Shown: in pieces, positions 1 to 19,095 of the stretch | Layout: each line of letters opens with the position of its first letter | Numbering within the stretch: position 1 is the first letter of the stretch | NCBI RefSeq assembly: GCF_051201565.1 | Contig: NZ_CP179200.1 | Coordinates: forward strand, 1,020,001-1,052,000 | Reading direction: 5' to 3' | DNA: 32,000 nt | DNA from: Pseudothioglobus sp. nBUS_23 | GTDB lineage: Bacteria > Pseudomonadota > Gammaproteobacteria > PS1 > Pseudothioglobaceae | Notes under the pieces: model-generated | Databases searched by the model: none | The model's input: the letters and a program-made list of their open reading frames with translations, nothing else | What the model was told of the DNA's origin: nothing | Made by a program: the position numbers and the translations under genes

Positions 1-424
1 GATCTAATCTTGAGCCTTGCTCTATGTTGTGCCTTATTTCGTCTCTAGAGTGTGCCCTATAAAGGCAAATACGCTTATCATCCTCTTCAACAAAAAATGA
101 GGATGTTTCTCCAGATACATCTCTAATGAAGTCAACAATTGGTCTAATTTGCTCAAGATGATTACTTTGGGTATATATTGCACTTAAATATAAAGCTTGA
201 GTTCCAACTACATAGTTTTTATTTTTCAGACGGGAAACATAGCCATAATCTTCAAGAGTAGAAAGAATACGATATGCAGTTGAAACGTTAAAGTTTAATT
301 GTTCACAAATTTCTTTAATTGAAAATGAAGACTTATCTAACGAAAACATCGAAAGAATCTGTAGGCACTTTTCAATTGCATTATATTTTTTATCTATAGA
401 TCTGGGTTTCATCTTTTTTTTCAT
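1..424 (-). CDS. iclR: IclR-family transcriptional regulator, N-terminal ~141 aa only (the gene runs off the left window edge)
   Basis: This ORF is absent from the track because it is truncated. My own reverse-complement translation from the ATG at 424-422 gives MKKKMKPRSIDKKYNAIEKCLQILSMFSLDKSSFSIKEICEQLNFNVSTAYRILSTLEDYGYVSRLKNKNYVVGTQALYLSAIYTQSNHLEQIRPIVDFIRDVSGETSSFFVEEDDKRICLYRAHSRDEIRHNIEQGSRLD. It has an IclR-type winged HTH (STAYRIL.TLE..GYV). It is divergent from aceA, as in classical glyoxylate-shunt regulons. Confidence 0.75.
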   Translation of the reverse strand, partial: MKKKMKPRSIDKKYNAIEKCLQILSMFSLDKSSFSIKEICEQLNFNVSTAYRILSTLEDYGYVSRLKNKNYVVGTQALYLSAIYTQSNHLEQIRPIVDFIRDVSGETSSFFVEEDDKRICLYRAHSRDEIRHNIEQGSRLD

Positions 425-1966: not shown

Positions 1967-1996
1967 GCCCTTCTTTTTTGAGGGGCTTTCTAATTT
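1967..1996 (+). terminator. Stem-loop with a T-rich tail in the 63-nt aceA-aceK spacer (candidate partial terminator or attenuator)
   Basis: GCCCTTC (1967-1973), a TTTTTT loop, then GAGGGGC (1980-1986) form a 7-bp stem with one G-U pair. The stem is followed by TTTCTAATTT. Confidence 0.5.
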
Positions 1997-2007
1997 AAAT
2001 AGAATTT

Positions 2008-3801
2008 ATGCCTAGCAGTTCTTCTCAAAAAATCTCTTTATCGATTGCAAAAAAGATTTTGATGGGATTTGAACGTCACTATCAAAACATAAAAAGTGCT
2101 TCAATAGAAGCAAAAAGGTGCTTTGAAGAAAGAGAATGGGAAAAGATTGAAAAAGATTCAAAACTAAGACTTAATTTTTATGATGAACAAGTTGATGATT
2201 TTTGTAAGAAACTTTCCCTAGAACTTAAAAAACAAACCCTCTATGGAGCTAAAGAAGAATTCAATGACACAAAGAGTAGCGACAAATTTAATTCAGATTT
2301 CTGGAAAAATACTAAAAACGTATATACTGAGCTCATCACATCACACAAACAGCCGGAGTTAGCAGAGACTTTTTATAACTCAGTTTTTTGTAGAATATTC
2401 TCGAGAAGTTTTTATAACAATCAATATATTTTTACTAAACCTTGTGTTTCTCTTAATTACATTGATATGGATGAGCCTGTCATAGACAGCTATTTTGTTG
2501 ACAATGAACAGCTTCATGACACATTTGCATCCATTCTTAAGAATTATCAGTTCAAATGTGAATTTGGTAACTTTGATCAAGATATCGACAGGCTGCAGGA
2601 GCAACTATACAGACAAGTACCAAGGCTCAGCTCTGAGGTATTTGAGATGCAATTTATAAGCACACCCTTTATTAGAGGGACATGTGCTTATATTGTTGGG
2701 AAAATTGTCACTCAACTTCACCCCGATATTCCAGTTCTCATAGCGCTATTGAATGATCAAGAAAAAGGATTGTATGTTGACAGTCTCCTGACTGATGTCG
2801 GTGCAATTTCAATTGTTTTCAGTTTTTCTAGGTCATACTTTTTTATTACTACAGACTATCCTTCAGCCATTGTTGAATATTTGAAAGAGCTTTTACCAGG
2901 AAAAACAAGGGCCGTTCTTTACAGTGCAATTGGACTTCATAAACAAGGAAAAACTCTTCTTTATCGACATTTTTTAAAATATTCTAAAATTACTAGCGAA
3001 AAACTCATAATCGCACCTGGTATTAAAGGTATGGTTATGTCAGTGTTTACTTTTCCAATGTACCCATATGTTTTCAAAGTCATTAATGATAAGTTTGCCC
3101 CCCCAAAAATGGGAACAAAAGACATGGTTAAGGATAGATATTATTTTGTCAAAAATCATGTCAGAATTGGAAGATTAGCAGATACCTGGGAGTTTTCTAA
3201 TGTTGCCTTTCCACTGAAAGATATAGATGATACTTTATTGCAAGAATTAAAAAATAAAGCTGGTTCAAACATTGAAATTGAAGATGATCTGCTAATCATA
3301 AAACATATGTACATTGAAAACAAAATGACGCCATTAAATATGTATCTTGAAACAGCAAATAAGAAACAACAGAACCATATCATTAATGACTATGGAAAAG
3401 CAATTGATGAGCTTATAAACTCAAATATCTTTCCTGGCGACATGTTAACCAAAAACTTTGGTGTCACTCGCCAAAACCGAGTTGTTTTTTATGACTATGA
3501 TGAAATCACTTTGATGAGTACGCCAATCTTCAAAAAAATACCGAAGGCAAAAACATACGAACAGGAGATGGCATCAGAGCCATGGTATTACGTGGGACAA
3601 AACGATGTTTTTCCAGAAGAATTTAAATACTTTATGCTACCAAACCCCTACATGAAAGAGGTTTTTAATAAAAAGTATAAAAAGCTTTTGGATGCAGATT
3701 ACTGGGTATCTGTCCAAGAAAAAATAAAAGAAAATGGGGTTATGGATTACTATCCGTATGGACTTGAAATGCGTATGTGCAATATCTACAATGAAAAATA
3801 A
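2008..3801 (+). CDS. aceK: Isocitrate dehydrogenase kinase/phosphatase
   Basis: The 597-aa ORF shows long collinear matches to E. coli AceK as I recall it: IFPGDML.KNFGVTR..RVVFYDYDEI, ASEPWY.V...DVFPEEF, APGI.GMVM.VFT.P and VFKVI.D.FAP.K. Confidence 0.95.
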   Translation: MPSSSSQKISLSIAKKILMGFERHYQNIKSASIEAKRCFEEREWEKIEKDSKLRLNFYDEQVDDFCKKLSLELKKQTLYGAKEEFNDTKSSDKFNSDFWKNTKNVYTELITSHKQPELAETFYNSVFCRIFSRSFYNNQYIFTKPCVSLNYIDMDEPVIDSYFVDNEQLHDTFASILKNYQFKCEFGNFDQDIDRLQEQLYRQVPRLSSEVFEMQFISTPFIRGTCAYIVGKIVTQLHPDIPVLIALLNDQEKGLYVDSLLTDVGAISIVFSFSRSYFFITTDYPSAIVEYLKELLPGKTRAVLYSAIGLHKQGKTLLYRHFLKYSKITSEKLIIAPGIKGMVMSVFTFPMYPYVFKVINDKFAPPKMGTKDMVKDRYYFVKNHVRIGRLADTWEFSNVAFPLKDIDDTLLQELKNKAGSNIEIEDDLLIIKHMYIENKMTPLNMYLETANKKQQNHIINDYGKAIDELINSNIFPGDMLTKNFGVTRQNRVVFYDYDEITLMSTPIFKKIPKAKTYEQEMASEPWYYVGQNDVFPEEFKYFMLPNPYMKEVFNKKYKKLLDADYWVSVQEKIKENGVMDYYPYGLEMRMCNIYNEK

Positions 3802-4279
3802 TATGAAGTCAACCTGTGATATTTCTGATGAAATGCATCCAAAAGTTCAATATTTGAACCCAGTTTTTCAGAGTTTTGGTAAAAAAAATAGCTTCTCTGG
3901 TCGAATAGTTACAATCAAATGTTATGAGGATAACTCACTTGTAGAGGAAGCTTTAAAAACTGATGGGAGTGAATGTGTTCTGGTTATTGATGCAGGGGCA
4001 TCTTTAAAGTGCGCAATGATGGGAGATAAAAGAGCCTCAGATGCAATAAAGAATAACTGGGAAGGAATTATTATTAATGGGCCAATTAGAGACTCAGCAG
4101 AAATCAATTCTATGAATATTGGTATTCGTGCTCTTGGAACATGCCCTAGAAAAAGTATTAAAAAAGGAGCTGGAAAAAGAGATATAGATGTAACTTTTTC
4201 AAATGTAAAATTCATCTCTGGAAACTATCTTTATGCTGACGAAGATGGGGTTATTGTATTGGAACATAAGGCAGATTAA
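3791..4279 (+). CDS. RraA-family protein (RNase E regulator / HMG-CHA aldolase / oxaloacetate decarboxylase family)
   Basis: The protein is collinear with E. coli RraA: VFQSFGKK.SFSGRIVTIKCYEDNSL, VLVIDAG.S...A..GD, NWEGIIINGPIRD, IGI.ALG, and NVKFISGNYLYADEDGVIV. The track start at 3734 lies inside aceK. ATG 3791 overlaps aceK by 11 nt. ATG 3803 (MKSTCDIS...) aligns better with the RraA N-terminus. The stop TAA shares one base with the glcB ATG (TAATG). Confidence 0.85.
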   Translation: MKNNMKSTCDISDEMHPKVQYLNPVFQSFGKKNSFSGRIVTIKCYEDNSLVEEALKTDGSECVLVIDAGASLKCAMMGDKRASDAIKNNWEGIIINGPIRDSAEINSMNIGIRALGTCPRKSIKKGAGKRDIDVTFSNVKFISGNYLYADEDGVIVLEHKAD

Positions 4280-6429
4280 TGAGTACTGAACATCAAGTAA
4301 TTAATGACATAAAGGTTAACAATAAATTTTATGATTTTATTGATCAAGAGGTTTGTGATGGGCTGGACATTTCTGCTACAGAATTCTTCCAATCATTATC
4401 GAACATTCTAGCTAAATACCAAGATGAAAATAAGATTCTTTTGGAGAAGAGAAGTGAGCTGCAAGCAAAGATTAATGACTGGCATCGGAACAATAAAAGG
4501 ATTGACCAAAAAAAATACAAAGGCTTTCTTGAAGACATAGGCTATATTACCTCAAATCCTGGTGAATTCAATATTGATGTTGAAGAGGTTGATGATGAGA
4601 TTTCAAAGGTTTCAGGACCTCAGCTTGTTGTTCCTATAACTAACCAAAGATTTGTATTAAATGCAGTTAATGCAAGATGGGGTAGTCTTTTTGACTGTCT
4701 GTATGGAACCAACGTAATTCCTAATAGGGGCAGTATGACAACCTCTTTTGCGCATAACCTCCAGCGTGTAAACCGAACTGCAGAACTTGCATGTGAATTT
4801 CTTGATGAAATAGCACCTCTTAAAGGCGCCTCATATAGACAAATTACTTCCCAAGTGAAGTACTCTGGGACTTTAATTTTTAATCTTGATGATGGTGAGC
4901 TAGCAACCTTAATCGATCCTGATCAGTACATTGGTCTTACTGAAAGTGGAAACATATTACTCAAGAATAACAATCTCCATCTGGAGATAGTTTGTGACCA
5001 AGAGAGAAGTCTTCACAAAAGTGGAATTTTTGATGTCATTCTTGAGTCTGCTGTCACAACGATTGTTGATTTTGAGGATTCTGCCGCGACTGTTTCTGAT
5101 GAGGAGAAAATCCATGGCTACAGGAATTATTTAGGTCTTATGAAGCGTGATTTAAACTCAACTTTCACAAAAAATGGACATACAATCAGTAGATCACTAA
5201 ATAAAGACAAAAAGTATATTGATACAAATGGTGAAGAACATACTCTTCCTGGAACTAGCTTAACTCTTGTTCGCAACGTTGGAATACATATGAGAACAAG
5301 AATGGTTAGAAATCTTGACAACTCATCTATACCTGAAGGCATTATGGATGCAATGGTTACCTCACTGATTGCACTTCATGACTTGAAACTCAAGATAAAC
5401 TCAAAAAAAGGAAGTGTTTACATTGTAAAACCAAAGCTTCATGGTCCAGATGAGGTCAAATTTACAATAGATTTATTTGAATCAGTCGAAAACGCGCTTT
5501 CAATCAAAAAGAACACTCTGAAGATTGGAATTATGGATGAAGAGAGAAGAACTACTCTAAATCTAAAAGCTTGTATTTATGAAGCAAGAAGTCGGTGTAT
5601 TTTTATTAATACTGGCTTCCTTGACAGAACTGGTGATGAAATTCATACATCGATGATGGCCGGAGCAATGCGTTGTAAAAACCTTATTAAGGAAGAGGAC
5701 TGGTTTTCTGCTTATGAGGAAAACAATGTCAGTGTTGGACTGGAATGCGGACTTTACAAGAAAGCCCAGATTGGCAAAGGAATGTGGGCACAACCCGACC
5801 AAATGAGAGAGATGCTAGATAACAAGATGGTGCATCTAGAGGCTGGTGCAAGCTGCTCTTGGGTACCCTCTCCAACTGCAGCAACTTTACATGCCACTCA
5901 TTATCATCGATTTGATGTTATGAGTCAGCAACAAAAAATATTATCTAAAAACCAAAAGCCTAATCAAGATGACCTGCTTGTAATTCCTTTTTTGAAACTA
6001 GCCGATCAATTGTCTGAGGAAAAAATTATTAATGAAATAAATAACAATGCTCAAAGTATTTTGGGTTACGTTGTTAGATGGATTAACCATGGAGTTGGTT
6101 GCTCTAAAGTTCAAGATATAAACCATGTTGGACTCATGGAAGACAGAGCAACATTAAGAATTTCCTCGCAGCATATGGCTAACTGGTTGCACCACGAGAT
6201 CTGTTCTGAGAAGCAAGTCATTCAAGCCTTTAAAGAAATGGCTCTTATAGTGGATCAACAAAATAAGCATGACCCTAACTATATTCCAATGGCTCCTAAA
6301 TACGATTGCTACGCATTTAAAGCCTCTACAGCTCTAGTATTTGAAGGGACAGACCAGGCAAATGGTTACACTGAAGACATTCTCATCAAATACCGACGAA
6401 AATTTCTTGAGGCTAATCAAATTACTTAG
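4279..6429 (+). CDS. glcB: Malate synthase G
   Basis: The 716-aa ORF is collinear with E. coli GlcB: GPQLVVP..N.R..LNA.NARWGSL.D.LYG, SVYIVKPK.HGP.EV, MDEERRT.LNL, FINTGFLDRTGDE.H, AQIGKGMWA.PD, VPSPTAATLHA.HYH and MEDRATLRISSQH.ANWL.H. Confidence 0.96.
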   Translation: MSTEHQVINDIKVNNKFYDFIDQEVCDGLDISATEFFQSLSNILAKYQDENKILLEKRSELQAKINDWHRNNKRIDQKKYKGFLEDIGYITSNPGEFNIDVEEVDDEISKVSGPQLVVPITNQRFVLNAVNARWGSLFDCLYGTNVIPNRGSMTTSFAHNLQRVNRTAELACEFLDEIAPLKGASYRQITSQVKYSGTLIFNLDDGELATLIDPDQYIGLTESGNILLKNNNLHLEIVCDQERSLHKSGIFDVILESAVTTIVDFEDSAATVSDEEKIHGYRNYLGLMKRDLNSTFTKNGHTISRSLNKDKKYIDTNGEEHTLPGTSLTLVRNVGIHMRTRMVRNLDNSSIPEGIMDAMVTSLIALHDLKLKINSKKGSVYIVKPKLHGPDEVKFTIDLFESVENALSIKKNTLKIGIMDEERRTTLNLKACIYEARSRCIFINTGFLDRTGDEIHTSMMAGAMRCKNLIKEEDWFSAYEENNVSVGLECGLYKKAQIGKGMWAQPDQMREMLDNKMVHLEAGASCSWVPSPTAATLHATHYHRFDVMSQQQKILSKNQKPNQDDLLVIPFLKLADQLSEEKIINEINNNAQSILGYVVRWINHGVGCSKVQDINHVGLMEDRATLRISSQHMANWLHHEICSEKQVIQAFKEMALIVDQQNKHDPNYIPMAPKYDCYAFKASTALVFEGTDQANGYTEDILIKYRRKFLEANQIT

Positions 6430-6685: not shown

Positions 6686-7105
6686 ATGAAAAAGGTACTA
6701 AAGCTTACACTTGAAGATACAACTAAAATGATGGATAGCGCAATCAATAAAGCAATTGAAATAGGTATAGATATGGATATCGCTATTGTCGATGACGGTG
6801 GTCATCTCATGTTATTTACAAGAATGGATAATGCAAAAATTACAAGCATTAATGTTTCTATTGATAAGGCATTTACCGCTGCAGCAGCTAGAAAAGCAAC
6901 TTTAGATTATGGTAAATCTGTTATCAATCATGGACCAGCATTTGGCATCCAAACTTCACATCAAGGTCGTTTTTGTGTCGTTGGTGGTGGTTTGCCGCTT
7001 TTTGTTGATGGTCAGATTGTTGGCGGGATTGGTTGCAGTTCTGGGAGTGCAGACCAGGATATAGTCGTGGCTCAAGCAGGCATTGACGCATTACTTTCTG
7101 CTTAG
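6686..7105 (+). CDS. glcG: GlcG/DUF336 (HbpS-like, heme-binding) family protein
   Basis: The 139-aa ORF contains AIVDDGGHLMLFTRMD, S..KA.TAA and GGLPLFVDGQIVGGIGCSSGSADQD, which is collinear with E. coli GlcG. Adjacency to glcB mirrors the E. coli glc operon. Confidence 0.85.
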   Translation: MKKVLKLTLEDTTKMMDSAINKAIEIGIDMDIAIVDDGGHLMLFTRMDNAKITSINVSIDKAFTAAAARKATLDYGKSVINHGPAFGIQTSHQGRFCVVGGGLPLFVDGQIVGGIGCSSGSADQDIVVAQAGIDALLSA

Positions 7106-7118
7106 TAAAAAACTACCA

Positions 7119-7670
7119 CTAACCTTTAAATGCATTATCAGAAAGAAGATAATCTAATTCTTCCATAGTGCTCATGCGACCTAAGATTTCATTTCTATGA
7201 GGAAAGCGACCAAATTTTTTAACAAGGTCTCTATGATGCTTTGAAAACTCAAGGTTAAAGTTGTACTTTTCAAAAAGATAGACTTGGAGATTTTGATGGT
7301 CTAAATTTTCACTGTGCATTAATGGCATAAAGAGGAAAAGAAGCATTTCATTATCTAATTCCTCATCAAACCCATTATTTATCGCGTTTAGTGCAACCTC
7401 AATGGCCATACCTTCAGTTGAAAAGCCTTTAGCTTCAGATCTAAACATATTGAGAGGAAACTGATCAAGAATTATGATGAGGGCAACTGAGCCTTCAGCT
7501 GTCTCTCTCCATGAGCCGAAATCACCAGATGAGGCCTGTTCCCAAACTTTCTCAAATCTGGATTTAATCTCTTTGTCTATTGTTGGAGTTGAAGCAAACC
7601 AGAACTGCTTGCTTTTTTCAGAAAACCAATAATCAATTATATCGCTAGGCTTTATTAGATTTTCATTCAT
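7119..7670 (-). CDS. DUF924-family protein of unknown function
   Basis: The motifs are IIDYWF....KQFWF....IDKEI..RF, ALIIILDQFPLNMFR, LFLFMPLMHSE and KHHRDLVKKFGRFPHRNEILGR.ST.EE, which I recognise as the DUF924 pattern. The track start at 7712 is a GTG buried in a hairpin. The ATG at 7670 (MNENLIKPSDII...) is preferred. Confidence 0.8.
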   Translation of the reverse strand: MNENLIKPSDIIDYWFSEKSKQFWFASTPTIDKEIKSRFEKVWEQASSGDFGSWRETAEGSVALIIILDQFPLNMFRSEAKGFSTEGMAIEVALNAINNGFDEELDNEMLLFLFMPLMHSENLDHQNLQVYLFEKYNFNLEFSKHHRDLVKKFGRFPHRNEILGRMSTMEELDYLLSDNAFKG

Positions 7671-7685
7671 AGTTAAGCTATAAGA

Positions 7686-7722
7686 AACCTCTAGAGCAGC
7701 ATAATATACCACTCTAAAGGTT
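7686..7722 (-). other. Stable stem-loop in the xsc-DUF924 spacer (mRNA processing or stability element, or weak terminator)
   Basis: On the minus-strand transcript, AACCTTTAGAG, a 15-nt loop and CTCTAGAGGTT form an 11-bp stem with one G-U pair. Only a weak U-rich tail (UCUUAU) follows. Confidence 0.45.
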
Positions 7723-7735
7723 TAAAAGTTAATAC

Positions 7736-9508
7736 TTAACGATGAGGAGATTTTTCGCCGTAATCTTTGTACTTTTCTAAATGTCTAATTGGTTTGCTTA
7801 GAGCATCTTTTCTGAACGGGTCTCCCAGCTCTCTAGAGCACATAATTTCGATAATTGTTGTCTTTCTCTCATTCATTTGCATATCGATTGCTTTTTTGAG
7901 TGCTGGCCCAACATCTTCAAGCTTATCAACACGGATTCCTTCAGCGCCCATCGATTCAGCTATATTGACAAAATGTTGGTCAGTTAGTTCAGCTGCTACA
8001 AATCTTCTGTCATAAAAATCAACTTGATTCTTCTTTTCTGCTCCCCAATGACGATTATGAAAAACTACCGCTGTCACAGGGATATCATGACGTACACAAG
8101 TCATCGTTTCAACCATACTCATGGCCCATGCACCATCACCAGCATAAGAAACTGCAGGCCTATGTTGGGCAGCTGCTTTCGCGCCAATAATTGTTGGAAA
8201 TGCATAGCCACAATTTCCAAAGCTCATTGCTGCAAAAAAACTTCGTGGCTTTTCAAAGCGCAAATAACTATTTGCAACAGAGTTAATATTTCCAATATCA
8301 GTTGAAACCATTACATCTTCAGGCATTGCTTTTTCAAGTTCTCTTAAAACTTGTCTAGGATGAAGCCAACCCTCTTCCTTATTTGCAATCATATCCATGC
8401 TGTAGGAATCAGTCTCATGAATCCATTCATCCAATTCTAATTCCCAGGCCGCTTTTTCATCTGCAATCATTTTTGCTCTATCAGCTTTTGTAGAATCACA
8501 ATTAAGTGATTCAGAGTCTAATTTTTGACATAAAACTGATGCCACTGCTTTTGCATCACCACAGATACCAACATTAATTGGTTTAACTAAGCCAAGCATT
8601 TTGTGGTCAGCATCAATTTGAATAATCTGAGCATCTTTTGGCCAGTAGTCCATTCCATGCTGAGGCAGGGTCCCAAACGGGCCTAATCTAGTTCCTAACG
8701 CAATAACTACATCAGCCTTAGAAATAAGCTTCATTGCAGCTTTTGAGCCTTGATAACCCAGTGGACCACACCACAAATCATGACTAGCTGGGAAAGAATC
8801 ATTATGCAAGTAGCTATTCACTACAGGAGCGCCAAGACGCTCAGCTAAGGCTGCACACTCATCTACGCCATCTGCCATAACAACACCACCGCCAGATACA
8901 ATAACTGGAAACTTTGCTTTTGCAATCAATGCAACTGCTTCGTTGAGAGTATCCTCTCCTCCGGATCCTCGATCTATACGTCGAGGTGTAGGAATAGTGA
9001 ATTCTCCATCTGCATAGAAATAATCTCTAGGTATATTTAGTTGTGTTGGGGCCATTTCACTCATAGCTCTATCAAAACAACGGCCAGTAAATTCCGCCAT
9101 TCTCATTGGATTCACAACATGTCCCTGATATTTAGTAAACTCTTGGAACATAGGAAGTTGATTCGCTTCTTGAAATCCTCCCAATCCCATACCCATTGTT
9201 CCAGCTTCAGGAGTTACAATAACAACGGGGCTATGAGCCCAATAAGCAGCAGCAATCGCAGTAACGCAATTTGAAATTCCTGGACCATTTTGCCCAATAA
9301 CAACACCATGCCTACCACTAACCCTTGAGTATCCATCAGCCATGTGAGCAGCTCCCTGCTCATGAACAACTGGAATAAATCTTATTCCTGCGGGTTCAAA
9401 GATATCCATTGCATCCATAAATGCTGAGCCCATAATACCGAAAATATCTGTAACTTCATTCGCTACCATAGTTTCAACAAAGGCTTCACTCGAAGTCATT
9501 TTTGCCAT
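7736..9508 (-). CDS. xsc: Sulfoacetaldehyde acetyltransferase (ThDP-dependent)
   Basis: The 590-aa ThDP enzyme has long matches to characterised Xsc as I recall it: GQNGPGISN, AAYW.H.P, LNIPRDYF, AKFPVIVSGGGVV, HNDSFP.SH.L..GPLGYQGSKAAMKLISKADVVIALGTRLGPFGTLP..GMDYWPKDAQIIQID and VGICGDAK. A GGGAG Shine-Dalgarno sequence is present, and the gene sits in a tpa/ald/tauR/tauE context. Confidence 0.9.
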   Translation of the reverse strand: MAKMTSSEAFVETMVANEVTDIFGIMGSAFMDAMDIFEPAGIRFIPVVHEQGAAHMADGYSRVSGRHGVVIGQNGPGISNCVTAIAAAYWAHSPVVIVTPEAGTMGMGLGGFQEANQLPMFQEFTKYQGHVVNPMRMAEFTGRCFDRAMSEMAPTQLNIPRDYFYADGEFTIPTPRRIDRGSGGEDTLNEAVALIAKAKFPVIVSGGGVVMADGVDECAALAERLGAPVVNSYLHNDSFPASHDLWCGPLGYQGSKAAMKLISKADVVIALGTRLGPFGTLPQHGMDYWPKDAQIIQIDADHKMLGLVKPINVGICGDAKAVASVLCQKLDSESLNCDSTKADRAKMIADEKAAWELELDEWIHETDSYSMDMIANKEEGWLHPRQVLRELEKAMPEDVMVSTDIGNINSVANSYLRFEKPRSFFAAMSFGNCGYAFPTIIGAKAAAQHRPAVSYAGDGAWAMSMVETMTCVRHDIPVTAVVFHNRHWGAEKKNQVDFYDRRFVAAELTDQHFVNIAESMGAEGIRVDKLEDVGPALKKAIDMQMNERKTTIIEIMCSRELGDPFRKDALSKPIRHLEKYKDYGEKSPHR

Positions 9509-9527
9509 TTTTTTTACTCCCCTATTA

Positions 9528-10646
9528 TTATTTATTTAATATATCCAAAGCAGGAACATAATCATATCCCAAATCCTGTGCAACCTCTAAACAAGTTACG
9601 TTTCCACTGTGAACGTTTAATCCAGCTCTTAGGTGCTCATCATCCAATAGAGCCTGTTTTACTCCTTTATTCGCAATACTCAGCCCGAACGGCAAGGTGA
9701 CATTGTTCAGAGCATAAGTAGATGTTTTTGGAACGCCTCCAGGCATATTAGCAACACAATAGTGCACTACATCGTCAACTATGTATGTTGGTTCTGCATG
9801 AGTTGTAGCCTTAGAAGTTTCAAAACAGCCGCCTTGGTCAATTGCAACATCTACAATCACAGATCCAGGTTTCATAGCTTTTATCATTTCTTTAGAGACC
9901 AGTTTTGGAGCTTCAGCTCCAGGAATCAGCACCCCACCAATAACCAGGTCGGCTTGGAGCACATACTCTTCTACCGAACTTTTAGTTGAGAACACAGTAT
10001 TTGTGCTTCTACCAAATTGCTGCCAATGCTGCTCCAAAGTATCAGGATTATTATCCAGTACCCAAACATCAGCACCCATACCAACAGCCATATGTGCTGC
10101 ATGAGCTCCAACAACTCCACCACCAAGTATCACTACCTTAAGTGGATCAACTCCTGGGACACCGCCAAGAAGTGCACCCATTCCGCCATTTGGATGCTCT
10201 AAAAAGTGGGCACCGGCTTGGACAGCCATTCTGCCAGCAACCTTTGACATTGGTGCCAGTAATGGCAGGCCACCTCTTGGAGAGGTTACTGTCTCATAGG
10301 CAACACAGATTGCTCCACTTTCAACAAGCCCTTTAGTCTGCTCAGGGTCTGGCGCAAGATGAAGATAAGTGTAGAGTATTTGTCCTTCTCTAAGCATGGC
10401 AATTTCTTCCGCCTGAGGTTCTTTGACCTTGACAATCATTTCTGCTTTATCAAACACCTCTTTGGCAGTTGCAATAATCTCAGCACCTGTATAAGCATAC
10501 TCCTGATCTGAAGCACCGATTCCAACACCAGCATTAGTTTGAACTAAAACTTTGTGACCATGGTTAATAAATTCCTTAACACTTCTAGGTGTAAGACCAA
10601 CTCTATACTCATGATTTTTAATTTCTTTTGGGACACCAATAATCAT
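9528..10646 (-). CDS. ald: L-alanine dehydrogenase
   Basis: The 372-aa ORF begins MIIGVPKEIKNHEYRVGLTP. It has the NAD-binding VVILGGGVVG motif and is collinear with Ald throughout. Confidence 0.93.
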   Translation of the reverse strand: MIIGVPKEIKNHEYRVGLTPRSVKEFINHGHKVLVQTNAGVGIGASDQEYAYTGAEIIATAKEVFDKAEMIVKVKEPQAEEIAMLREGQILYTYLHLAPDPEQTKGLVESGAICVAYETVTSPRGGLPLLAPMSKVAGRMAVQAGAHFLEHPNGGMGALLGGVPGVDPLKVVILGGGVVGAHAAHMAVGMGADVWVLDNNPDTLEQHWQQFGRSTNTVFSTKSSVEEYVLQADLVIGGVLIPGAEAPKLVSKEMIKAMKPGSVIVDVAIDQGGCFETSKATTHAEPTYIVDDVVHYCVANMPGGVPKTSTYALNNVTLPFGLSIANKGVKQALLDDEHLRAGLNVHSGNVTCLEVAQDLGYDYVPALDILNK

Positions 10647-10678
10647 TTTAAATCCTATATGTTTATTAAAAAAAACTA

Positions 10679-12040
10679 TTAAATATTCGCAGCAATTGCG
10701 TTATCAACAGCATCTACAATTTGATCAATTTCGTTCTTTGAACAGATAAAAGCTGGACTGAACAAGAGCACATTGTTATTGTATTCAAAGCTTCGATTAG
10801 TTCTACCAATCATAACTTTATTTTTTAAACAATGTCCAGCAATGGCCATTGCTATGCTCTCATGAACGGGCTCTTTTGATTTTCTGTCCTTTACGAGCTC
10901 AACACCACAAAATAAACCTTTTCCCCTTACATCTCCAATGATGTCATATTTATCCTCGAGCGCATGCAACTTGTCTTTAAGATAATCACCCATATTTTTA
11001 ACATTTTCAAGGAGATTTTCTCTTTTAATAATATTTACAACTTCAAGAGCTGCAGCGGGCCCAGCAGTGCACCCACCAAAAGTAGATATGTCTCTGAAGT
11101 AGCTATCAGGGTTAGAAGGATCTTGCTTAAATCTATCAAAAATTTCTTCTGAAGTAATCGTAACAGAAATAGCGGCATAACCAGCAGCAAGGCCTTTTGC
11201 TGTAGTAACAATATCAGGCTGCACGTCAAAGTGTTGATAACCAAACCATTTACCAGTTCTGCCAAGTCCACAAACCACCTCATCAATGTGAAGTAAGACA
11301 TTATATTTTTTACATATAGATTGAATTATTGGGAAATATTCTTTGACAGGAGGAATAACACCTCCACCAGCAGTAATTGGCTCTAGAACAACAGAGCCTA
11401 CAGTATCTGGCCCCTCTTTAACAATGATATCTTCAAGTACGGTTGCGCACTCTATATTACACTCTCCATATTTTTTACCAAATGGGCAACGGTAACAACA
11501 ACAATTTGGCATTTCGACAAACCCTGGCGCAAAAGGACCATATTGTTTTTTGCGTTGGATTTGAGCAGAGGAGCTCATAGCACCAATTGTGGTTCCATGA
11601 TAATCACGATCACGAAAAATAATTTTATGTTTCTTGCCGTCATTATCAAAATGAGCCAGTTGGCGAACCATCTTATAGCCCTTTTCATTAGCTTCAGAGC
11701 CAGAATTAGAATAATAAACTCTGTTCATACCAGGCATCAACGAGGTAATTTCTTGCGCATATTCTGAAGCCGGTTCATTACCAAACGCACCAGCAAAATA
11801 AGGAATCTTTGAAATTTGATCACTAACCACCTTAACCATTTCATCTCTTCCATAACCCAGGTTCACTGTCCAAACTCCGCCTGAAGTTGCGTCCAGGTAT
11901 TCGTCACCTTTAGAATCCGTTATAATCATTCCATTAGCATTTGAAACAACTAGTGGATCATTAGATTCAAAAGCTTTGTGTTGAGTAAGATGGTGCCAGA
12001 CATGGTCTTTTGCATTTTCGACAACTGAAGTATTAGACAT
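10679..12040 (-). CDS. tpa: Class-III (omega) aminotransferase, taurine:pyruvate aminotransferase by context
   Basis: Class-III PLP motifs are present (SGSEANE, DEV.CGLGRTGKWFG, TTAKGL). The gene heads an operon with ald and xsc, divergent from tauR. I moved the start to the ATG at 12040 (MSNTSVV...), which has an AGGAGG Shine-Dalgarno sequence 4-5 nt upstream. The track start at 12088 has none. Confidence 0.8.
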   Translation of the reverse strand: MSNTSVVENAKDHVWHHLTQHKAFESNDPLVVSNANGMIITDSKGDEYLDATSGGVWTVNLGYGRDEMVKVVSDQISKIPYFAGAFGNEPASEYAQEITSLMPGMNRVYYSNSGSEANEKGYKMVRQLAHFDNDGKKHKIIFRDRDYHGTTIGAMSSSAQIQRKKQYGPFAPGFVEMPNCCCYRCPFGKKYGECNIECATVLEDIIVKEGPDTVGSVVLEPITAGGGVIPPVKEYFPIIQSICKKYNVLLHIDEVVCGLGRTGKWFGYQHFDVQPDIVTTAKGLAAGYAAISVTITSEEIFDRFKQDPSNPDSYFRDISTFGGCTAGPAAALEVVNIIKRENLLENVKNMGDYLKDKLHALEDKYDIIGDVRGKGLFCGVELVKDRKSKEPVHESIAMAIAGHCLKNKVMIGRTNRSFEYNNNVLLFSPAFICSKNEIDQIVDAVDNAIAANI

Positions 12041-12116
12041 TCTCCCTCCTAGAATAAATTTATACGCAGTATTAAAAGAAACAATCAAATTTTAAGAAAA
12101 GAATTATAAAATTTAA

Positions 12117-12148
12117 CTGGTCCTGATTTAACATATATATAGAACCAG
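12117..12148. promoter_or_regulatory. Candidate TauR (MocR) operator in the tpa/tauR divergent region
   Basis: CTGGTCC (12117-12123) and GAACCAG (12142-12148) are inverted repeats matching at 6 of 7 positions. An 18-nt AT-rich spacer containing TATATATA separates them. These are the only GC-rich islands in the 135-bp spacer. Confidence 0.35.
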
Positions 12149-12175
12149 GAAACTTACTATTAATAGGCCAGCAAA

Positions 12176-13648
12176 ATGGATGAAATGTGGAATCAATTTT
12201 TTTCTTTGAGACATGATAAACCAAGGACGCTTCAACTGCAGATCCGTCAGCAGCTAATTGATGCCATTACTAATGGTCTAATCGGTTCTAATGAGCCACT
12301 CCCGTCCTCACGAAATTTAGCAAAGGCTCTCAAGGTGGCCAGAAATACAGTCATAGCAGCTTACAAAGAGTTAGAGTTTGATGGCTATATAACACCGAAA
12401 GAAAGAAGAGGATATTTTGTTAACGAGCAATTTTATGAAAGCTATACTTCAAATGAAAAAGGCGAGCCAACTGAGCCACAGTCTCCAGTCTGGCATGATA
12501 AATTAATTACAAAAAAACCTTCTTCTCAAATCAATATTCATAATCCAGATAACTGGCAAAGTCTTCCCTACTCGTTCACAATTGGGCAACTTGACAAGAG
12601 CTTGATACCATACTATGAATGGCGAGAGGTGGTTAGACACTCATCTACACTGCCAGAAATTCAAAAATGGAATATAGATCATGTTGATAGTGATGATCCG
12701 TCCTTAATAAAACAAATCCAGTCTAAAGTTCTTCCAAAGAGAGGTATTTGGGCCAACAAAGATCAAATTTTGATTACGTCAGGCAGTCAAAATGCCATCT
12801 ACATGATAGCTAGTTTACTGACTAAACAAGGAACAGTTGTGGGTATGGAGAACCCCGGTTATCCTGATGTGAGAAACATTTTTAGCTCTAAAACTGACAA
12901 TATTGTTCCTATTAGTATTGATAAAGACGGCATTGTTGTTAACGATATTAAAGAAGACACGGATATTATTTTTACGACACCAAGCCACCAATACCCAACA
13001 GGTGTGACTATGAGTATGGAAAGAAGACGTGAACTTTTATCTATTGCCAAAGAAAAACAAATGGTTATTATTGAGGATGATTATGAGGCCGAGATAAACT
13101 TTCAAAAAAAGCCTCACCCTTCTCTCAAAAGCTTAGATAAAGACAATAATGTGATTTATGTTGGTAGCTTTTCAAAGGCTTTCGCTCCTGGTTTAAGGTT
13201 GGGATACATGGTAGCTCCTGAAAGCTTTATCAAGGAAGTCAAAGCTTTAAGAAGGCTAATGATTAGACATATACCAGCAAACAACCAGAGATCTGTTGCC
13301 CTTTTTATAGGACTAGGCCATTATCATAATATGTTTACTAAAATTCAAAAAACTAACAAAGAAAGGTGGGGGTTAATTAACGAAAAAATAAATAATGAGC
13401 CTTTATTGTCTTGCACTCCGACTCTAGGTGGTTCAACTTTTTGGATCGAAATACTTGCGCCTATCGATAGTGATAAACTTTGCAAAAACCTCCTAGGCAA
13501 AGGGGTTGCTGTAAGGTCTGGAAACACGCTATTTAGTGGGGATAACTCGCCAACAAATTATTTGCACCTTGGTTATTCTGCCATTGATACCAATAAAATT
13601 GACAAAGGTTTAGATTTAATTATTAAAGAAATTAAGGCGATGGTTTAA
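12176..13648 (+). CDS. tauR: MocR-subfamily GntR regulator (N-terminal wHTH plus C-terminal aminotransferase-like PLP domain), taurine regulator by context
   Basis: The 490-aa ORF has an N-terminal GntR HTH (LPSSRNLAKALKVARNTVIAAYKELEFDGYI). Its C-terminal fold-type-I aminotransferase-like domain includes the SFSKAFAPGLRLGY lysine motif. It is divergent from tpa. Confidence 0.8.
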   Translation: MDEMWNQFFSLRHDKPRTLQLQIRQQLIDAITNGLIGSNEPLPSSRNLAKALKVARNTVIAAYKELEFDGYITPKERRGYFVNEQFYESYTSNEKGEPTEPQSPVWHDKLITKKPSSQINIHNPDNWQSLPYSFTIGQLDKSLIPYYEWREVVRHSSTLPEIQKWNIDHVDSDDPSLIKQIQSKVLPKRGIWANKDQILITSGSQNAIYMIASLLTKQGTVVGMENPGYPDVRNIFSSKTDNIVPISIDKDGIVVNDIKEDTDIIFTTPSHQYPTGVTMSMERRRELLSIAKEKQMVIIEDDYEAEINFQKKPHPSLKSLDKDNNVIYVGSFSKAFAPGLRLGYMVAPESFIKEVKALRRLMIRHIPANNQRSVALFIGLGHYHNMFTKIQKTNKERWGLINEKINNEPLLSCTPTLGGSTFWIEILAPIDSDKLCKNLLGKGVAVRSGNTLFSGDNSPTNYLHLGYSAIDTNKIDKGLDLIIKEIKAMV

Positions 13649-13656
13649 AGTCCTCA

Positions 13657-14412
13657 ATGGAAAATCTTTATAACTTCACTCCAGAAAACTATTTATTAAT
13701 AGCTCTTGTTGTTATTTTTTCTGGTTTTTTAAGAGGCTTTATAGGCTTTGGATCTGGTCTCTTAATGATTCCAATTCTTTCTTATTTTTATTCTCCAGTC
13801 TTTGCAATGGTTTTCAATATTGTCATTGAAATTCCAGCAACCATCTATTTGACATTTGTTGGCATTAAAAAAGCTAATTTAAAAGAGATCACTCCTATGA
13901 TGGCGACAATGATGCTAACTATCCCTTTTGGAACAATATTTTTAGTTTCCGTTGATGAACAAATCATCAAAACTTTGATGTCTATACTTTTAATATTTTT
14001 TGTTATTCTGATTGGAAGTGGCTGGCGAATCAAATCTACGATAACTAAATATGTTCTTGTATTAGGAGGCGCTATCAGCGGCTTAATGCAGGGAGCAACA
14101 GGTATGGGAGGGCCGCCATACGTAACAGTTCTATTATCTAAAAATGATAGCGATGAAGTGGCACGAGCAAATATTTTAGTAATTACTTCTGGCCTAGTGA
14201 TCAGCGCTATTATGAGTCTTTATTATTTTGGACTTTTCACAAAAGACATTTTATTTACAGGTGCAATCACTGCCCCAGTCTATGTATTTGCCACATATAT
14301 TGGCACAAGATTTTTTAACTTTTCTGGGAACAAATATTACAGAAACTCTTCATTGGTTGCGCTTGGAATAGTTGGGGTAGCGACACTCATAGGCGCTTTA
14401 ATGAGCCATTAG
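13657..14412 (+). CDS. tauE: TauE/SafE-family sulfite exporter (membrane protein)
   Basis: The 251-aa ORF is polytopic and hydrophobic, with the family-typical G.G.GLL.IP and GMGGP motifs. It lies 8 nt downstream of tauR in an xsc locus. Confidence 0.8.
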   Translation: MENLYNFTPENYLLIALVVIFSGFLRGFIGFGSGLLMIPILSYFYSPVFAMVFNIVIEIPATIYLTFVGIKKANLKEITPMMATMMLTIPFGTIFLVSVDEQIIKTLMSILLIFFVILIGSGWRIKSTITKYVLVLGGAISGLMQGATGMGGPPYVTVLLSKNDSDEVARANILVITSGLVISAIMSLYYFGLFTKDILFTGAITAPVYVFATYIGTRFFNFSGNKYYRNSSLVALGIVGVATLIGALMSH

Positions 14413-16877: not shown

Positions 16878-16913
16878 ATCTATTTAAGTGATAAAAAAAA
16901 TAGAATTATAGAA

Positions 16914-18182
16914 CTATTTACCCTTCCATGGAACGAGATAGTTTTCTGAAATTCTCATTAATATATCAATGGCATAGCCAATGACGCCAATTAAAACAAT
17001 TCCCATAATTACTAAGTCGGTCATTTGGAATTTAGATGCGTTAATAATCATCATTCCAGCTCCTTTTTGTGCAGCTACCAATTCTGCAGCAACAACTGTT
17101 CCCCAGCAAACTCCCATAGATACTCTTGCACCTGTAAAGATCTCTGGCAAACTATTTGGAACAATGACTAACCTCATAATCTGCCACTTTGATGCGCCGA
17201 GGGAGTAAGCGGCATGGATTTTTGAAATTTTCACACCTGAAACTCCTGCTCTGGCTGAAATCGTCATAATCCAGAGTGATGCTAAAAATAGCAAAATAAT
17301 CTTACCCTGCTCTCCAATTCCAAACCAAATAATAACTAGCGGAATGAGAGCTAAAGGTGGCACTGGCCTCATAAATTCAACTATAGGGTCAAACCAGCCC
17401 CTAAACCATCCAGATAAACCCATCGCATAGCCCAAAGGAATTCCAATAATTGCACCAGCTAAAAACCCAACAATTACTCGAATAAGGGACCAACCTAAGT
17501 GCTCCCATAGAGTAAAGTTTTTATACCCTTCAGAGCCAACCTTGACTAATCTAGACCAGACTGTTTCTGGTGCAGGAAGCCACACAGGCTGCATCTGCCA
17601 GCCTTTTTCTGGTGTGACACTCAACGTACCCTTTCTTGTCATATAAATACGAGCATTGTCAACAAACACCTCTTGTTCTGGAGATATTTCCTGTCCATTG
17701 ACAGCTACTACTTTATAGTCTTTATCTTTTCCACCTACATCGTTTTTTTGAACTTTAATAAGTCCACTTCTGTAGGTTATGATTTGATCAGTATCATTCA
17801 GCGCAAAACCGTCTCCTGGTTCAATTTCAAGCTTGTCAGGTATTACACCAGACTGAACATCATAGACCGTTATGGTTACATCGGCGTCATCTGTTTCACC
17901 AGAGGAATTCATTGCTGTATAGCTAAAAGAGAGATCGCCAACAAAAGGTCCAGGCACATGAATTGGGATTAATTTAGAGCCTGTGAATGCTGCCCATATA
18001 GCAAAGATAGCGATTACGGATATAAAAGATGCTGCTCTGTTAGGTGTGACAGCACTCTCATCTCCAAAAGTTACTGTTTTTAAACTTGTAAAATCATCTT
18101 GTGATTTGGTAAATGATGTAGCAATCTTAACAACATAGAAAGCTGCAACAAAAATTATTATATAAAAAATTAAAATAGCCAT
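16914..18182 (-). CDS. tauC: Taurine ABC transporter permease with a long N-terminal/periplasmic extension
   Basis: The C-terminal ~225 aa are collinear with E. coli TauC: LP.P..V, TLW.HL..SL.R, DPI.E..RPVPPLA..PL.IIWFGIGE, SLGAS, LPEI.TG.R and VAAEL.AA..G.G. The N-terminal ~200 aa have no counterpart in the 275-aa E. coli protein. The ATG shares one base with the tauB stop (TAATG). Confidence 0.85.
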   Translation of the reverse strand: MAILIFYIIIFVAAFYVVKIATSFTKSQDDFTSLKTVTFGDESAVTPNRAASFISVIAIFAIWAAFTGSKLIPIHVPGPFVGDLSFSYTAMNSSGETDDADVTITVYDVQSGVIPDKLEIEPGDGFALNDTDQIITYRSGLIKVQKNDVGGKDKDYKVVAVNGQEISPEQEVFVDNARIYMTRKGTLSVTPEKGWQMQPVWLPAPETVWSRLVKVGSEGYKNFTLWEHLGWSLIRVIVGFLAGAIIGIPLGYAMGLSGWFRGWFDPIVEFMRPVPPLALIPLVIIWFGIGEQGKIILLFLASLWIMTISARAGVSGVKISKIHAAYSLGASKWQIMRLVIVPNSLPEIFTGARVSMGVCWGTVVAAELVAAQKGAGMMIINASKFQMTDLVIMGIVLIGVIGYAIDILMRISENYLVPWKGK

Positions 18183-18985: not shown

Positions 18986-19011
18986 AACTGGCTCCGAATT
19001 TGTTTTTCATT

Positions 19012-19041
19012 AAAAAAGTGGCACACTTAAAAGTGCGCCAC
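19012..19041 (-). terminator. Intra-operon intrinsic terminator or attenuator between tauA and tauB
   Basis: On the minus-strand transcript, GUGGCGCAC, a UUUUAA loop and GUGUGCCAC form a 9-bp stem with one mismatch. UUUUUU follows immediately. The element lies in the 110-nt tauA-tauB spacer. Confidence 0.6.
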
Positions 19042-19095
19042 CTTTGGTCTAACTAATACTAAATTAAAGACTTAAATGTCGTTAATTTAAATACT

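Follow-up and report, generated by a model that had tools for sequence, protein, structure and literature searches.

An RraA-like gene within the glyoxylate-shunt operon of Pseudothioglobus and its possible role as an oxaloacetate decarboxylase

Organization of the glyoxylate-shunt locus

The window, i.e., the whole stretch of 32,000 nucleotides that was analysed, carries near its 5' end a glyoxylate-bypass operon of the aceBAK type, in which isocitrate lyase, malate synthase and AceK are clustered with an IclR-type regulator. The regulator gene (2-424, minus strand; Pfam HTH_IclR, E = 2e-9) is divergent from aceA and represented by its N-terminal part, being cut by the window edge; a full-length IclR gene occupies the matching position in loci L001-L008, L011, L012 and L091. 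On the plus strand, aceA (637-1944) encodes isocitrate lyase (NCBIfam NF011645, 763 bits for a cutoff of 562; Pfam ICL) and is followed by aceK (2008-3801), encoding the isocitrate dehydrogenase kinase/phosphatase (NCBIfam NF002804, 681 bits for a cutoff of 488; Pfam AceK_regulatory and AceK_kinase) and ending with the TAA at 3799-3801. Next come an RraA-family gene (3803-4279, plus strand; PF03737 and NF006875) of 158 aa, or 162 aa if read from the ATG at 3791, whose stop is the TAA at 4277-4279, and glcB (4279-6429, plus strand), the gene of malate synthase G (NCBIfam NF002825, 994 bits for a cutoff of 565). A GlcG/HbpS-like gene (PF03928, 125 bits; 6686-7105, plus strand) lies 3' of glcB, as it does at the equivalent position in L001-L008 and L011, and is possibly the last member of the transcription unit. 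The taurine genes Tpa/Ald, noticed in the sequence-only reading of this DNA, are indeed present near the shunt operon.

Between aceA and aceK lies a GC-rich stem-loop with a T-run behind it (1967-1986, plus strand), which gives a terminator-like match. L001 and L005 retain the stem, as does L011 through changes in both arms (GCCCTTC/GAAGGGC to GCCTT/AAGGC), and from its sequence it is a candidate attenuator or partial terminator that may act upstream of aceK-rraA-glcB. The locus resembles the E. coli aceBAK operon and its divergent iclR in the clustering of aceA, aceK, a malate synthase and an IclR-type regulator, and in having a structured element between aceA and aceK. It differs by the order aceA-aceK-X-glcB, with malate synthase G in last position and a fourth, rraA-like gene inserted and translationally coupled where E. 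coli has nothing; the order aceB-aceA-aceK-rraA is found in L063.

Both junctions of the rraA-like gene are tight, as had been noted from the letters alone. Depending on the start codon, the gene overlaps aceK by 11 nt (ATG 3791) or is separated from it by 1 nt (ATG 3803), and its stop shares one base with the ATG of glcB at 4279 (TAATG). An AAGG Shine-Dalgarno-like motif for glcB, kept in L001, L005 and L011, is located within the 3' end of rraA. The orthologues start with MKSTCD or MTKSTCD and abut or overlap the aceK stop, and this homology of the N-termini favors ATG 3803; the AAGGA Shine-Dalgarno sequence of the relatives reads AATGA in the window, a change which creates ATG 3791. The rraA-like ORF is a real, constrained gene, with dN/dS values of 0.09-0.18 against three orthologues, i.e., under purifying selection. 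A TTGAAA-17-TACAAT match at 3764-3792, just 5' of rraA, is not claimed as a promoter, since promoter-like matches in this AT-rich region are below those of shuffled sequences (21 versus 29.5).

The order aceA-aceK-rraA-glcB with tight junctions is kept in relatives, with RraA identities of 55-98%. It occurs in the cultured Ca. Pseudothioglobus singularis PS1 (CP006911.1) and other Thioglobaceae, as well as at L012, whose AceK is 53% identical, and at L128, and it extends to more distant Gammaproteobacteria. The rraA junctions are overlapping or near-abutting in the close relatives L001, L005 and L011 and slightly looser in L012, where gaps of 17 nt and 6 nt were observed. This recurrence, including PS1, bears out the view that the gene is an integral member of the operon. 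Beyond this order, rraA-like genes also adjoin aceK, aceA, aceB or glcB in many unrelated arrangements.

Family assignment and active-site residues

Residues 8-156 of the protein match positions 1-152 of the PF03737 profile (146.7 bits for a cutoff of 24.5, E = 8e-43), which places it in the RraA-like/HMG-CHA aldolase superfamily. The model NF006875, named 'ribonuclease E activity regulator RraA', is passed at 206 bits for a cutoff of 136, this broad model also taking in proteins with intact catalytic motifs, whereas the score for the enterobacterial RraA equivalog TIGR02998 (RraA_entero) is 146 bits, under the cutoff of 241. The models of the HMG/CHA aldolase proper (LigK/GalC/ProA) are far from being reached (36.5 bits versus 304.5 for TIGR02798, 43.1 versus 179 for NF006731). 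Six solved RraA-family structures were matched at E < 1e-33. Structure prediction with 13 close homologues aligned gave an unusable model (mean pLDDT of 45.5), and the fold assignment is based on the 41-47% sequence identity to four solved structures.

RraA-like proteins are routinely annotated 'RNase E regulator' and were historically annotated 'MenG'. The closest solved structure is P. aeruginosa PA1772 (3C8O, annotated RraA; E = 3e-40, 47% identity), whose catalytic residues are identical to those of the window protein; unlike the window gene, PA1772 belongs to a 'DGGGS ... RDV' clade whose members adjoin ppsA (ppsA-hydrolase-rraA) outside shunt operons. Thermus thermophilus RraA (TtRraA, 1J3L) and yeast Yer010Cp (2C5Q) are like the window protein in fold family, similar length, R-D dyad, K-S-x-K and N; 1J3L is 37% identical to it, with no C-terminal extension. 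Reportedly, both proteins have HMG aldolase and oxaloacetate decarboxylase activities (Mazurkewich et al. 2014, as summarised in PMC5065237). We know of no defined in vivo role for either, whereas the window gene has a defined metabolic context. E. coli RraA (1Q5X), the protein inhibitor of RNase E, shares family and length with the window protein at 37-39% identity, but the G-D, R-D and S-x-K of the window protein are replaced in it by D-A, R-Q and A-x-G, and its gene lies beside menA, far from aceBAK, instead of inside a shunt operon. E. coli RraA reportedly has no C-C lyase activity.

[quoted passage not shown] Residue mapping gives N44, G74, D75, R96, D97, S118 and K120 as the equivalents of N71, G101, D102, R123, D124, T145 and K147, so that 7 of 7 mappable active-site residues are kept, whereas E. 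coli RraA retains only the N and the R and has lost the other 5. Catalysis by the P. putida enzyme requires Arg-123, and Asp-124 is a metal ligand, while Thr-145 and Lys-147 are active-site or phosphate-site residues (PMC5065237), in agreement with the roles given to the Arg-Asp dyad in the sequence-only reading. This dyad is present in the GPIRDSAEI peptide as R96-D97 (R100-D101 from ATG 3791), and the alignment also bears out the R-Q of E. coli RraA at the same position. Two codon stretches on the plus strand carry the site: 4022-4093 for G74-D75-X20-R96-D97 (G101-D102 ... R123-D124 in the alignment with the 3NOJ sequence) and 4151-4162 for K117-S118-I119-K120, in which S118 and K120 map to Thr-145 and Lys-147.

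With G74-D75-X20-R96-D97-S-A-E100, the window protein carries the D/G-X20-R-D motif, with its optional -X2-E/D, of the catalytically active RraA-like lyases of the TtRraA/Yer010Cp type, a class marked by oxaloacetate decarboxylase/HMG aldolase activity that depends on a divalent metal and is inhibited by oxalate, together with N44, S118 and K120 at the further active-site positions of 3NOJ (Asn-71, Thr-145 and Lys-147). TtRraA has a G at the D102 equivalent and relies on R-D-x2-E, whereas the window protein has a D there, as the P. putida enzyme does (D-X20-R-D). Except for this D75 to G replacement, the 97 family members tabulated besides E. coli RraA all keep the catalytic motif, and D-X20-R-D is invariant across all shunt-linked homologues. 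R-D-x2-E was rejected as the defining motif in favor of D-X20-R-D, the conserved metal motif, because E100 (E104 from ATG 3791) is M, Q or V even in close relatives. Similarly, the conserved Cys in 'RCAMLGD' was dropped as a subfamily marker since it is also present in many ppsA-linked members. 'RDS/T/A' versus 'RDV/I' does track shunt linkage (odds ratio of 10, P = 7e-6). From these alignments the window protein is predicted to be competent as an enzyme. According to PMC5065237, a metal or catalysis motif is present in the majority of homologues, which are expected to act as class II pyruvate aldolases, and the fold family decarboxylates oxaloacetate by way of a pyruvate enolate.

The protein does not correspond to the long form of the HMG/CHA aldolase (approximately 230 aa, encoded in protocatechuate/gallate meta-cleavage clusters): it ends approximately 35 residues past the K147 equivalent, its gene neighbors are aceK and glcB, and with 158 aa against 238 for 3NOJ it is without the C-terminal segment (Arg-195, Glu-199') and without equivalents of Arg-40 and His-75.

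Linkage of rraA-like genes to shunt genes and ppsA

Neighborhoods were compared in an AceK-centred and an RraA-centred survey, each limited to the 80 best of at least 600 pattern matches, the loci being phylogenetically non-independent. In the AceK-centred survey, an rraA-like ORF adjoins aceK or aceA in 10 of the 80 species genomes retained from at least 600 matches, for a chance expectation of approximately 0.1 (binomial P of approximately 3e-17, for loci that are phylogenetically non-independent); L042, where an RraA fragment is found 4.5 kb from aceK on the opposite strand, was excluded from the count. Six gene orders were observed, aceA-aceK-rraA(-glcB), aceB-aceA-aceK-rraA, aceA-rraA-aceK, rraA-aceK, aceK-rraA-acs and the convergent aceK> <rraA-aceA, and in each of the 10 positive loci the shunt gene next to rraA is aceK. 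In the RraA-centred, metagenomic survey, 28 of the best 80 of at least 600 loci are shunt-linked, and these 28 span several clades of the family tree and 37-65% GC. In 12 of the 28, aceK stands beside rraA, and many shunt-linked loci have no aceK (glcB-rraA, aceA-rraA).

The second recurrent neighbor is ppsA, the gene of PEP synthase, present in the flank of 36 of the 80 RraA-centred loci, 33 of them beyond the 28 shunt-linked ones, and always accompanied by ppsR. It ends directly 5' of rraA on the same strand in 12 loci and is separated from it by one gene in 13 others; in L161, the single locus scanned for it, this gene encodes an alpha/beta hydrolase. L159, of the same one-gene-between class, encodes an RraA 95% identical to P. 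aeruginosa PA1772. Both linkages meet in L097, L098 and L101, where aceA-aceK-rraA-x-ppsR-ppsA lie on a single strand. Further neighbors of family genes are acs and prpE-prpB-prpC. In the literature searched, no paper connects RraA with aceK, isocitrate lyase, malate synthase or ppsA, two co-mentions being irrelevant, and none describes the gene as part of an aceA-aceK-glcB operon.

Proposed function of the RraA-like protein

We propose, with about an even chance of being right, that the window protein is a Mg2+-dependent pyruvate-enolate lyase acting mainly as an oxaloacetate decarboxylase, which would give the shunt a C4-to-C3 exit; activity, substrate and direction of flux are inferred from the active site and the gene context. 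In this reading, a short-form RraA-family protein with an entire class II (divalent-metal) pyruvate-enolate active site is made from one transcript together with AceK and malate synthase G, its translation being coupled to theirs. Acetyl-CoA carbon, coming here for example from taurine via Tpa/Xsc and acetyl phosphate, would enter the shunt and leave it as malate, which malate dehydrogenase would convert to oxaloacetate. The RraA-like enzyme would then turn a part of the oxaloacetate pool into pyruvate and CO2, and this pyruvate could serve biosynthesis or, via PEP synthase, gluconeogenesis. In E. coli, the C4-to-C3 job is done by malic enzyme or PEP carboxykinase. Malic enzymes and soluble oxaloacetate decarboxylases (FAH-family Odx/FAHD1, PA4872 type) are alike in the role proposed, i.e., C4 to pyruvate on C2/C4 substrates, feeding PEP synthase, but their folds are unrelated to the RraA-like fold, and the role of the window protein is read only from gene context.

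Three roles had been put forward for the gene from its sequence, (i) oxaloacetate decarboxylase, (ii) glyoxylate/pyruvate aldolase and (iii) RNase E modulator. The first has gained independent support from the ppsA adjacency and the clusters joining shunt genes, rraA and ppsA, since a pyruvate-forming enzyme is the simplest common denominator of adjacency to ppsA (pyruvate to PEP) and to a C4-producing shunt; the second may hold; the third is not favored. Aldol cleavage and oxaloacetate decarboxylation are inseparable by gene context alone, because one active site supports both. Co-expressing an oxaloacetate decarboxylase with a pathway that saves carbon would seem wasteful in the absence of tight control.

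The main rival, to which we give a rather low probability, is a lyase acting on glyoxylate adducts, cleaving 4-hydroxy-2-oxoglutarate into pyruvate and glyoxylate and/or oxalomalate into oxaloacetate and glyoxylate, as metabolite repair or buffering. The adducts would arise from shunt glyoxylate with pyruvate or oxaloacetate, and their removal would protect aconitase and isocitrate dehydrogenase and recover glyoxylate. The chemistry of these compounds supports this reading: glyoxylate and oxaloacetate condense non-enzymatically to oxalomalate, which decarboxylates to 4-hydroxy-2-oxoglutarate, and each of these two products is a strong inhibitor of aconitase and of isocitrate dehydrogenase (PMC4945632). 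The active site is that of enzymes cleaving 4-hydroxy-2-oxoacids with a 4-carboxylate (HMG, CHA), the linkage is specifically to the glyoxylate producer aceA, the consumers aceB/glcB and the isocitrate dehydrogenase regulator aceK, and a site 3' of aceK and of the post-aceA hairpin would suit a low-abundance housekeeping enzyme. However, the adjacency to ppsA and that to acs and prpE-prpB-prpC are left unexplained, and the Arg-40, His-75, Arg-195 and Glu-199' that the short form lacks belong to the distal pocket of the long form (residues named in PMC5065237).

A true RraA, which would bind the C-terminal region of RNase E or DEAD-box helicases and tune ace mRNA or global decay upon shunt induction, is unlikely, and so is RNase E regulation as the main role of the window protein. 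The NF006875 score, the same annotation ('ribonuclease E activity regulator RraA') of the PS1 orthologue and the identity to E. coli RraA would fit such a function. Against it stand the score below the TIGR02998 cutoff, the strict conservation of catalytic residues that the established inhibitor of E. coli has lost, the consistent neighbors, which are genes of the PEP-pyruvate-oxaloacetate node and not of RNA metabolism, and the position of E. coli rraA away from the ace genes. Intact-motif proteins of Pseudomonas and Vibrio have been reported as RNase E inhibitors, so that one protein could well both act as a catalyst and bind RNase E.

It is very improbable that the protein is, instead of or in addition to an enzyme, a partner or metabolite sensor of the adjacent bifunctional regulatory kinases AceK (on isocitrate dehydrogenase) and PSRP (on PEP synthase), i.e., a mimic of the phosphohistidine 'swivel' domain that would bind pyruvate/oxaloacetate, modulate both kinases and couple the shunt branch point and PEP synthesis to the pyruvate/oxaloacetate pool: the frequent contact with aceK in both surveys, the place of rraA between aceK and ppsR-ppsA in L097, L098 and L101 and the relation of the fold to the phosphohistidine domain of PPDK and Enzyme I (PMC5065237) are purely circumstantial, many linked loci are without aceK, ppsR goes with ppsA anyway, and the strict conservation of the metal/enolate residues suggests catalysis.

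The recurrent linkage, which withstands rearrangement, suggests for RraA-like proteins a concrete, testable role as a soluble enzyme at the PEP-pyruvate-oxaloacetate node; one section of the family has isocitrate lyase, AceK and malate synthase as partners, a second has PEP synthase, and some clusters have both. RraA-like proteins competent in catalysis are present in every domain of life and, to our knowledge, have been assigned no physiological substrate or role. If the window protein is an oxaloacetate decarboxylase, abundant marine heterotrophs, among them SUP05-clade Pseudothioglobus and Chromatiales, would have a dedicated C4-to-C3 exit in their glyoxylate shunt, metabolic models resting on malic enzyme or PEP carboxykinase would have to be revised, and many database annotations would be misleading.

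Operon layout and translational signals

In the window, an RraA-family ORF (rraA) with a TAA stop at 4277-4279 lies on the forward strand within a glyoxylate-shunt operon formed by aceA (637-1944, isocitrate lyase, 763 bits), aceK (2008-3801, stop TAA 3799-3801, 681 bits) and glcB (4279-6429, malate synthase G, 994 bits), all on the same strand and all exceeding their NCBIfam cutoffs. The ORF begins either at ATG 3791, overlapping aceK by 11 nt, or at ATG 3803, after a 1-nt gap, and its stop has one base in common with the glcB ATG (TAATG); the layout and both junctions are exactly those claimed in the sequence-only reading. The ORF matches PF03737 (146.7 bits, E = 8e-43) and gives dN/dS values of 0.09, 0.12 and 0.18 against orthologues 88%, 75% and ~72% identical, respectively; it is a real gene. 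A fragment of an IclR-type regulator gene (2-424, reverse strand) is divergent from aceA. A GlcG/HbpS-like gene (PF03928, 6686-7105, forward strand), present 3' of glcB in every Pseudothioglobus-type locus, is convergent with a DUF924 gene (7119-7712, reverse strand); in E. coli, glcG adjoins glcB within the glc operon.

The closest homologues of the window protein (75-98% identity) belong to the SUP05-clade heterotroph Ca. Pseudothioglobus (Thioglobus) singularis and its relatives, in which every contig inspected carries aceA-aceK-rraA-glcB-glcG-like with a divergent iclR, and beyond it DUF924 and taurine genes (xsc-ald-aminotransferase). The complete genome of the cultured strain PS1 (CP006911.1, 797-810 kb) carries the same arrangement, which is thus already publicly available with an annotation that calls the gene RraA.

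The orthologues start with MKSTCD or MTKSTCD, their ATG following the aceK stop immediately in PS1 (TAAATG), one base later in the related locus L005 and overlapping it in L011 (ATGACTAA), and a Shine-Dalgarno sequence (AAGGA or GGAG) lies 7-10 nt 5' of the start in relatives. ATG 3803 is therefore the conserved start. In the window this site (3788-3805) reads AATGA versus AAGGA in relatives, a change which creates the in-frame ATG 3791 and weakens the ribosome-binding site, so that coupling to the end of aceK translation may matter more for rraA expression here. At the other junction, rraA and glcB also overlap in L005 and, as ATGA, in L001 and L011, and an AAGG motif within the final rraA codons is conserved across the window and these three loci.

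A GC-rich hairpin followed by a T-run lies in the aceA-aceK spacer immediately 3' of aceA (1967-1986, forward strand); its stem is kept in relatives, with both arms changed in L011. Like the E. coli aceA-aceK spacer, which is also structured, it may attenuate aceK-rraA-glcB relative to aceA. A promoter-like match (TTGAAA-17-TACAAT, 10/12) is found on the forward strand within the 3' end of aceK, just 5' of rraA (3764-3792); promoter-like matches in this AT-rich region were not enriched over shuffles.

Family membership and active site

The nearest solved structures are short RraA-family proteins, namely P. aeruginosa PA1772 (3C8O, 47% identity, E = 3e-40), V. cholerae RraA (1VI4, 44%), M. tuberculosis Rv3853 (1NXJ, 41%), E. 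coli RraA (1Q5X, 37%) and T. thermophilus RraA (1J3L, 37%), and the long-form P. putida HMG/CHA aldolase (3NOJ) was matched at E = 8e-4 only. The window protein exceeds the cutoff of the broad NCBIfam model 'RNase E activity regulator RraA' (206 versus 136 bits) and falls below that of the enterobacterial RraA equivalog (146 versus 241), slightly below that of NF009134 'putative HMG aldolase' (174 versus 196) and far under those of the LigK-type aldolase models.

For residue mapping, the 3NOJ sequence was aligned with the window protein and reference proteins. Asn-71, Gly-101, Asp-102, Arg-123, Asp-124, Thr-145 and Lys-147 of 3NOJ correspond to N44, G74, D75, R96, D97, S118 and K120 of the window protein (counted from ATG 3803) and to N, D, A, R, Q, A and G in E. 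coli RraA; the metal and catalytic residues are kept in the window protein, and E. coli RraA does read R-Q at the dyad, as stated in the sequence-only reading. In the P. putida aldolase, the pyruvate enolate is stabilised by Arg-123, which makes this residue essential, Asp-124 binds the metal, Thr-145 and Lys-147 line the site, and oxaloacetate is also decarboxylated via the same enolate (PMC5065237). One of two metal/catalysis motifs is found in most RraA homologues, which are thus predicted to act as class II pyruvate aldolases (PMC5065237); the version in the window protein is D-X20-R-D. The sequence-only reading had singled out an Arg-Asp dyad (GPIRDSAEI), which aligns with Arg-123/Asp-124. 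The Glu of RD-x2-E is not conserved even in close relatives, being M in PS1 and Q in P0011. Arg-40, His-75 and, at the C-terminus, Arg-195 and Glu-199' of the aromatic-pathway HMG/CHA aldolase are all missing from the short form, and membership in that subfamily is therefore ruled out.

Gene neighbourhoods of rraA

One genome per species was scanned with an AceK alignment, and six-frame ORFs of the 80 loci most similar to the window AceK were searched for an RraA-like ORF; in this survey and the RraA-centred one alike, the 80 loci are the top-ranked of at least 600 pattern matches and cannot be counted as phylogenetically independent. An RraA-like ORF adjoins aceK or aceA in 10 of these best 80, where ~0.1 chance adjacencies are expected (one rraA per ~3000 genes; binomial P ~3e-17, for loci that are not independent). 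The orders are aceA-aceK-rraA-glcB (L011, a Ca. Thioglobus MAG; L012, an unclassified Gammaproteobacterium with AceK 53% identical), aceA-aceK-rraA (L013, Ca. Poriferihabitaceae), aceA-rraA-aceK (L023, Thiorhodococcus fuscus), rraA-aceK (L017, Thiohalocapsa), aceK convergent with rraA-aceA (L054, Thiohalomonadales) and, in unclassified Gammaproteobacteria, aceA-aceK-rraA-acs-like (L057), aceB-aceA-aceK-rraA (L063), aceK-rraA-acs-like (L033) and aceK-rraA-acs-like-prpB-prpC (L051). No such ORF was found beside aceK or aceA in any of the many Burkholderiales or Alteromonadales loci of the 80, nor in E. coli. So many different orders speak against one chance event that was simply inherited.

Metagenome contigs without taxonomy were scanned reciprocally with an alignment of seven shunt-linked RraAs. 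Among the 80 top-ranked of at least 600 matches (48-100% identical to the L033 protein), 28 had a shunt gene directly beside rraA, as did 11 of the 41 whose two flanks are each at least 2.5 kb long. The orders were aceK-rraA, rraA-aceK, aceA-rraA-aceK, aceB-aceA-rraA, aceA-rraA, rraA-aceA, lysR-glcB-rraA with a divergent long-form aceA, icd and aceA divergent from rraA-MBL hydrolase, and one further aceA-aceK-rraA-glcB (L128); aceK-rraA-glcB, also present in PS1, L011 and L012, is thus not unique to this genome, in agreement with the operon-member reading. These shunt-linked loci span 37-65% GC, shunt-linked rraA fill several clades of a neighbour-joining tree, and the signature 'RDS/T/A' versus 'RDV/I' tracks the linkage (22:7 versus 12:39, odds ratio 10, P = 7e-6).

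Within the same best 80, 36 have ppsA, encoding PEP synthase, in the rraA flank. It ends directly 5' of rraA on the same strand, 4-37 nt before or overlapping, in 12 loci (L109, L110, L112, L116, L122, L129, L136, L144, L151, L153, L163, L166), and one gene intervenes in 13 others (including L159, L161, L165, L167-L170 and L172), an alpha/beta hydrolase in L161, the single locus scanned. The rraA of these loci belong to the PA1772-like clade, with the regulator gene ppsR divergent; the L159 RraA, from the one-intervening-gene class, is 95% identical to PA1772. Furthermore, L097, L098 (~1-7.8 kb) and L101, with L099 and L100 in part, carry a single co-directional cluster aceA-aceK-rraA-x-ppsR-ppsA, where x encodes a 278-aa protein with no Pfam match and ppsR is confirmed as PF03618. 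Shunt genes, the RraA-like gene and the PEP synthase gene are thus united in one cluster. In total, rraA has neighbours from the PEP-pyruvate-oxaloacetate node in 61 of the 80; of the other 19, most are on short contigs.

An acetyl/propionyl-CoA synthetase-like gene lies 3' of rraA in L033/L094, L051, L057/L095 and L096, followed by prpB-prpC (methylcitrate cycle) in L051 and L095, which ties rraA to C2/C3 acid assimilation more generally. A metallo-beta-lactamase-fold hydrolase gene (PF00753) lies directly 3' of rraA in the loci with divergent icd and aceA (L127, L141, L173) and in L126, the 320-aa ORF beginning 12-30 nt after rraA in the first three; this hydrolase gene may be another partner that recurs with rraA.

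Predicted function

Neither the RraA family nor its fold or in vitro activities are new, and the gene is in published genomes. Full-text searches, largely outside subscription journals, found no account of RraA-like genes recurring in glyoxylate-shunt clusters or neighbouring ppsA. Our data show, at the level of sequence, that an RraA-family protein with intact catalytic residues is an integral, coupled member of the shunt operon, and the surveys show a persistent linkage of its family with shunt genes and with the PEP synthase gene.

The common denominator of the neighbours would be pyruvate made from a C4 acid, and we give about even chances to the RraA-like enzyme being an oxaloacetate decarboxylase yielding pyruvate, as the sequence-only reading had suggested. 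Cleavage of 4-hydroxy-2-oxoglutarate or oxalomalate by the same active site is rather unlikely. [quoted passage not shown] Regulation of RNase E is improbable given the conserved catalytic residues and the metabolic gene context, and a partnership with AceK or PSRP, the ppsR product, is speculative and the least probable.

The shunt operon adjoins a complete taurine-to-acetyl-phosphate island (7736-20091), with xsc (7736-9508), ald (alanine dehydrogenase, 9528-10646), a Tpa-like class III aminotransferase gene (10679-12088), a FAD-oxidoreductase/GcvT-domain fusion (14409-16877) and tauCBA-like ABC transporter genes (16914-20091) on the reverse strand, and a MocR-type regulator (12176-13648) and a TauE sulfite exporter (13657-14412) on the forward strand. 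Housekeeping genes (riboflavin synthesis, nusB, ftsW, murG, bioB, glnA, hemF) extend from there to a XerC/XerD-type tyrosine recombinase gene (31058-31972, reverse strand) close to the other edge of the window. The island would supply C2 units as acetyl phosphate, and we propose that the shunt is consequently obligatory for growth on taurine. If the RraA-like enzyme is an oxaloacetate decarboxylase, the shunt would lead through malate to oxaloacetate, which this enzyme would convert to pyruvate, and PEP synthase would turn the pyruvate into PEP.
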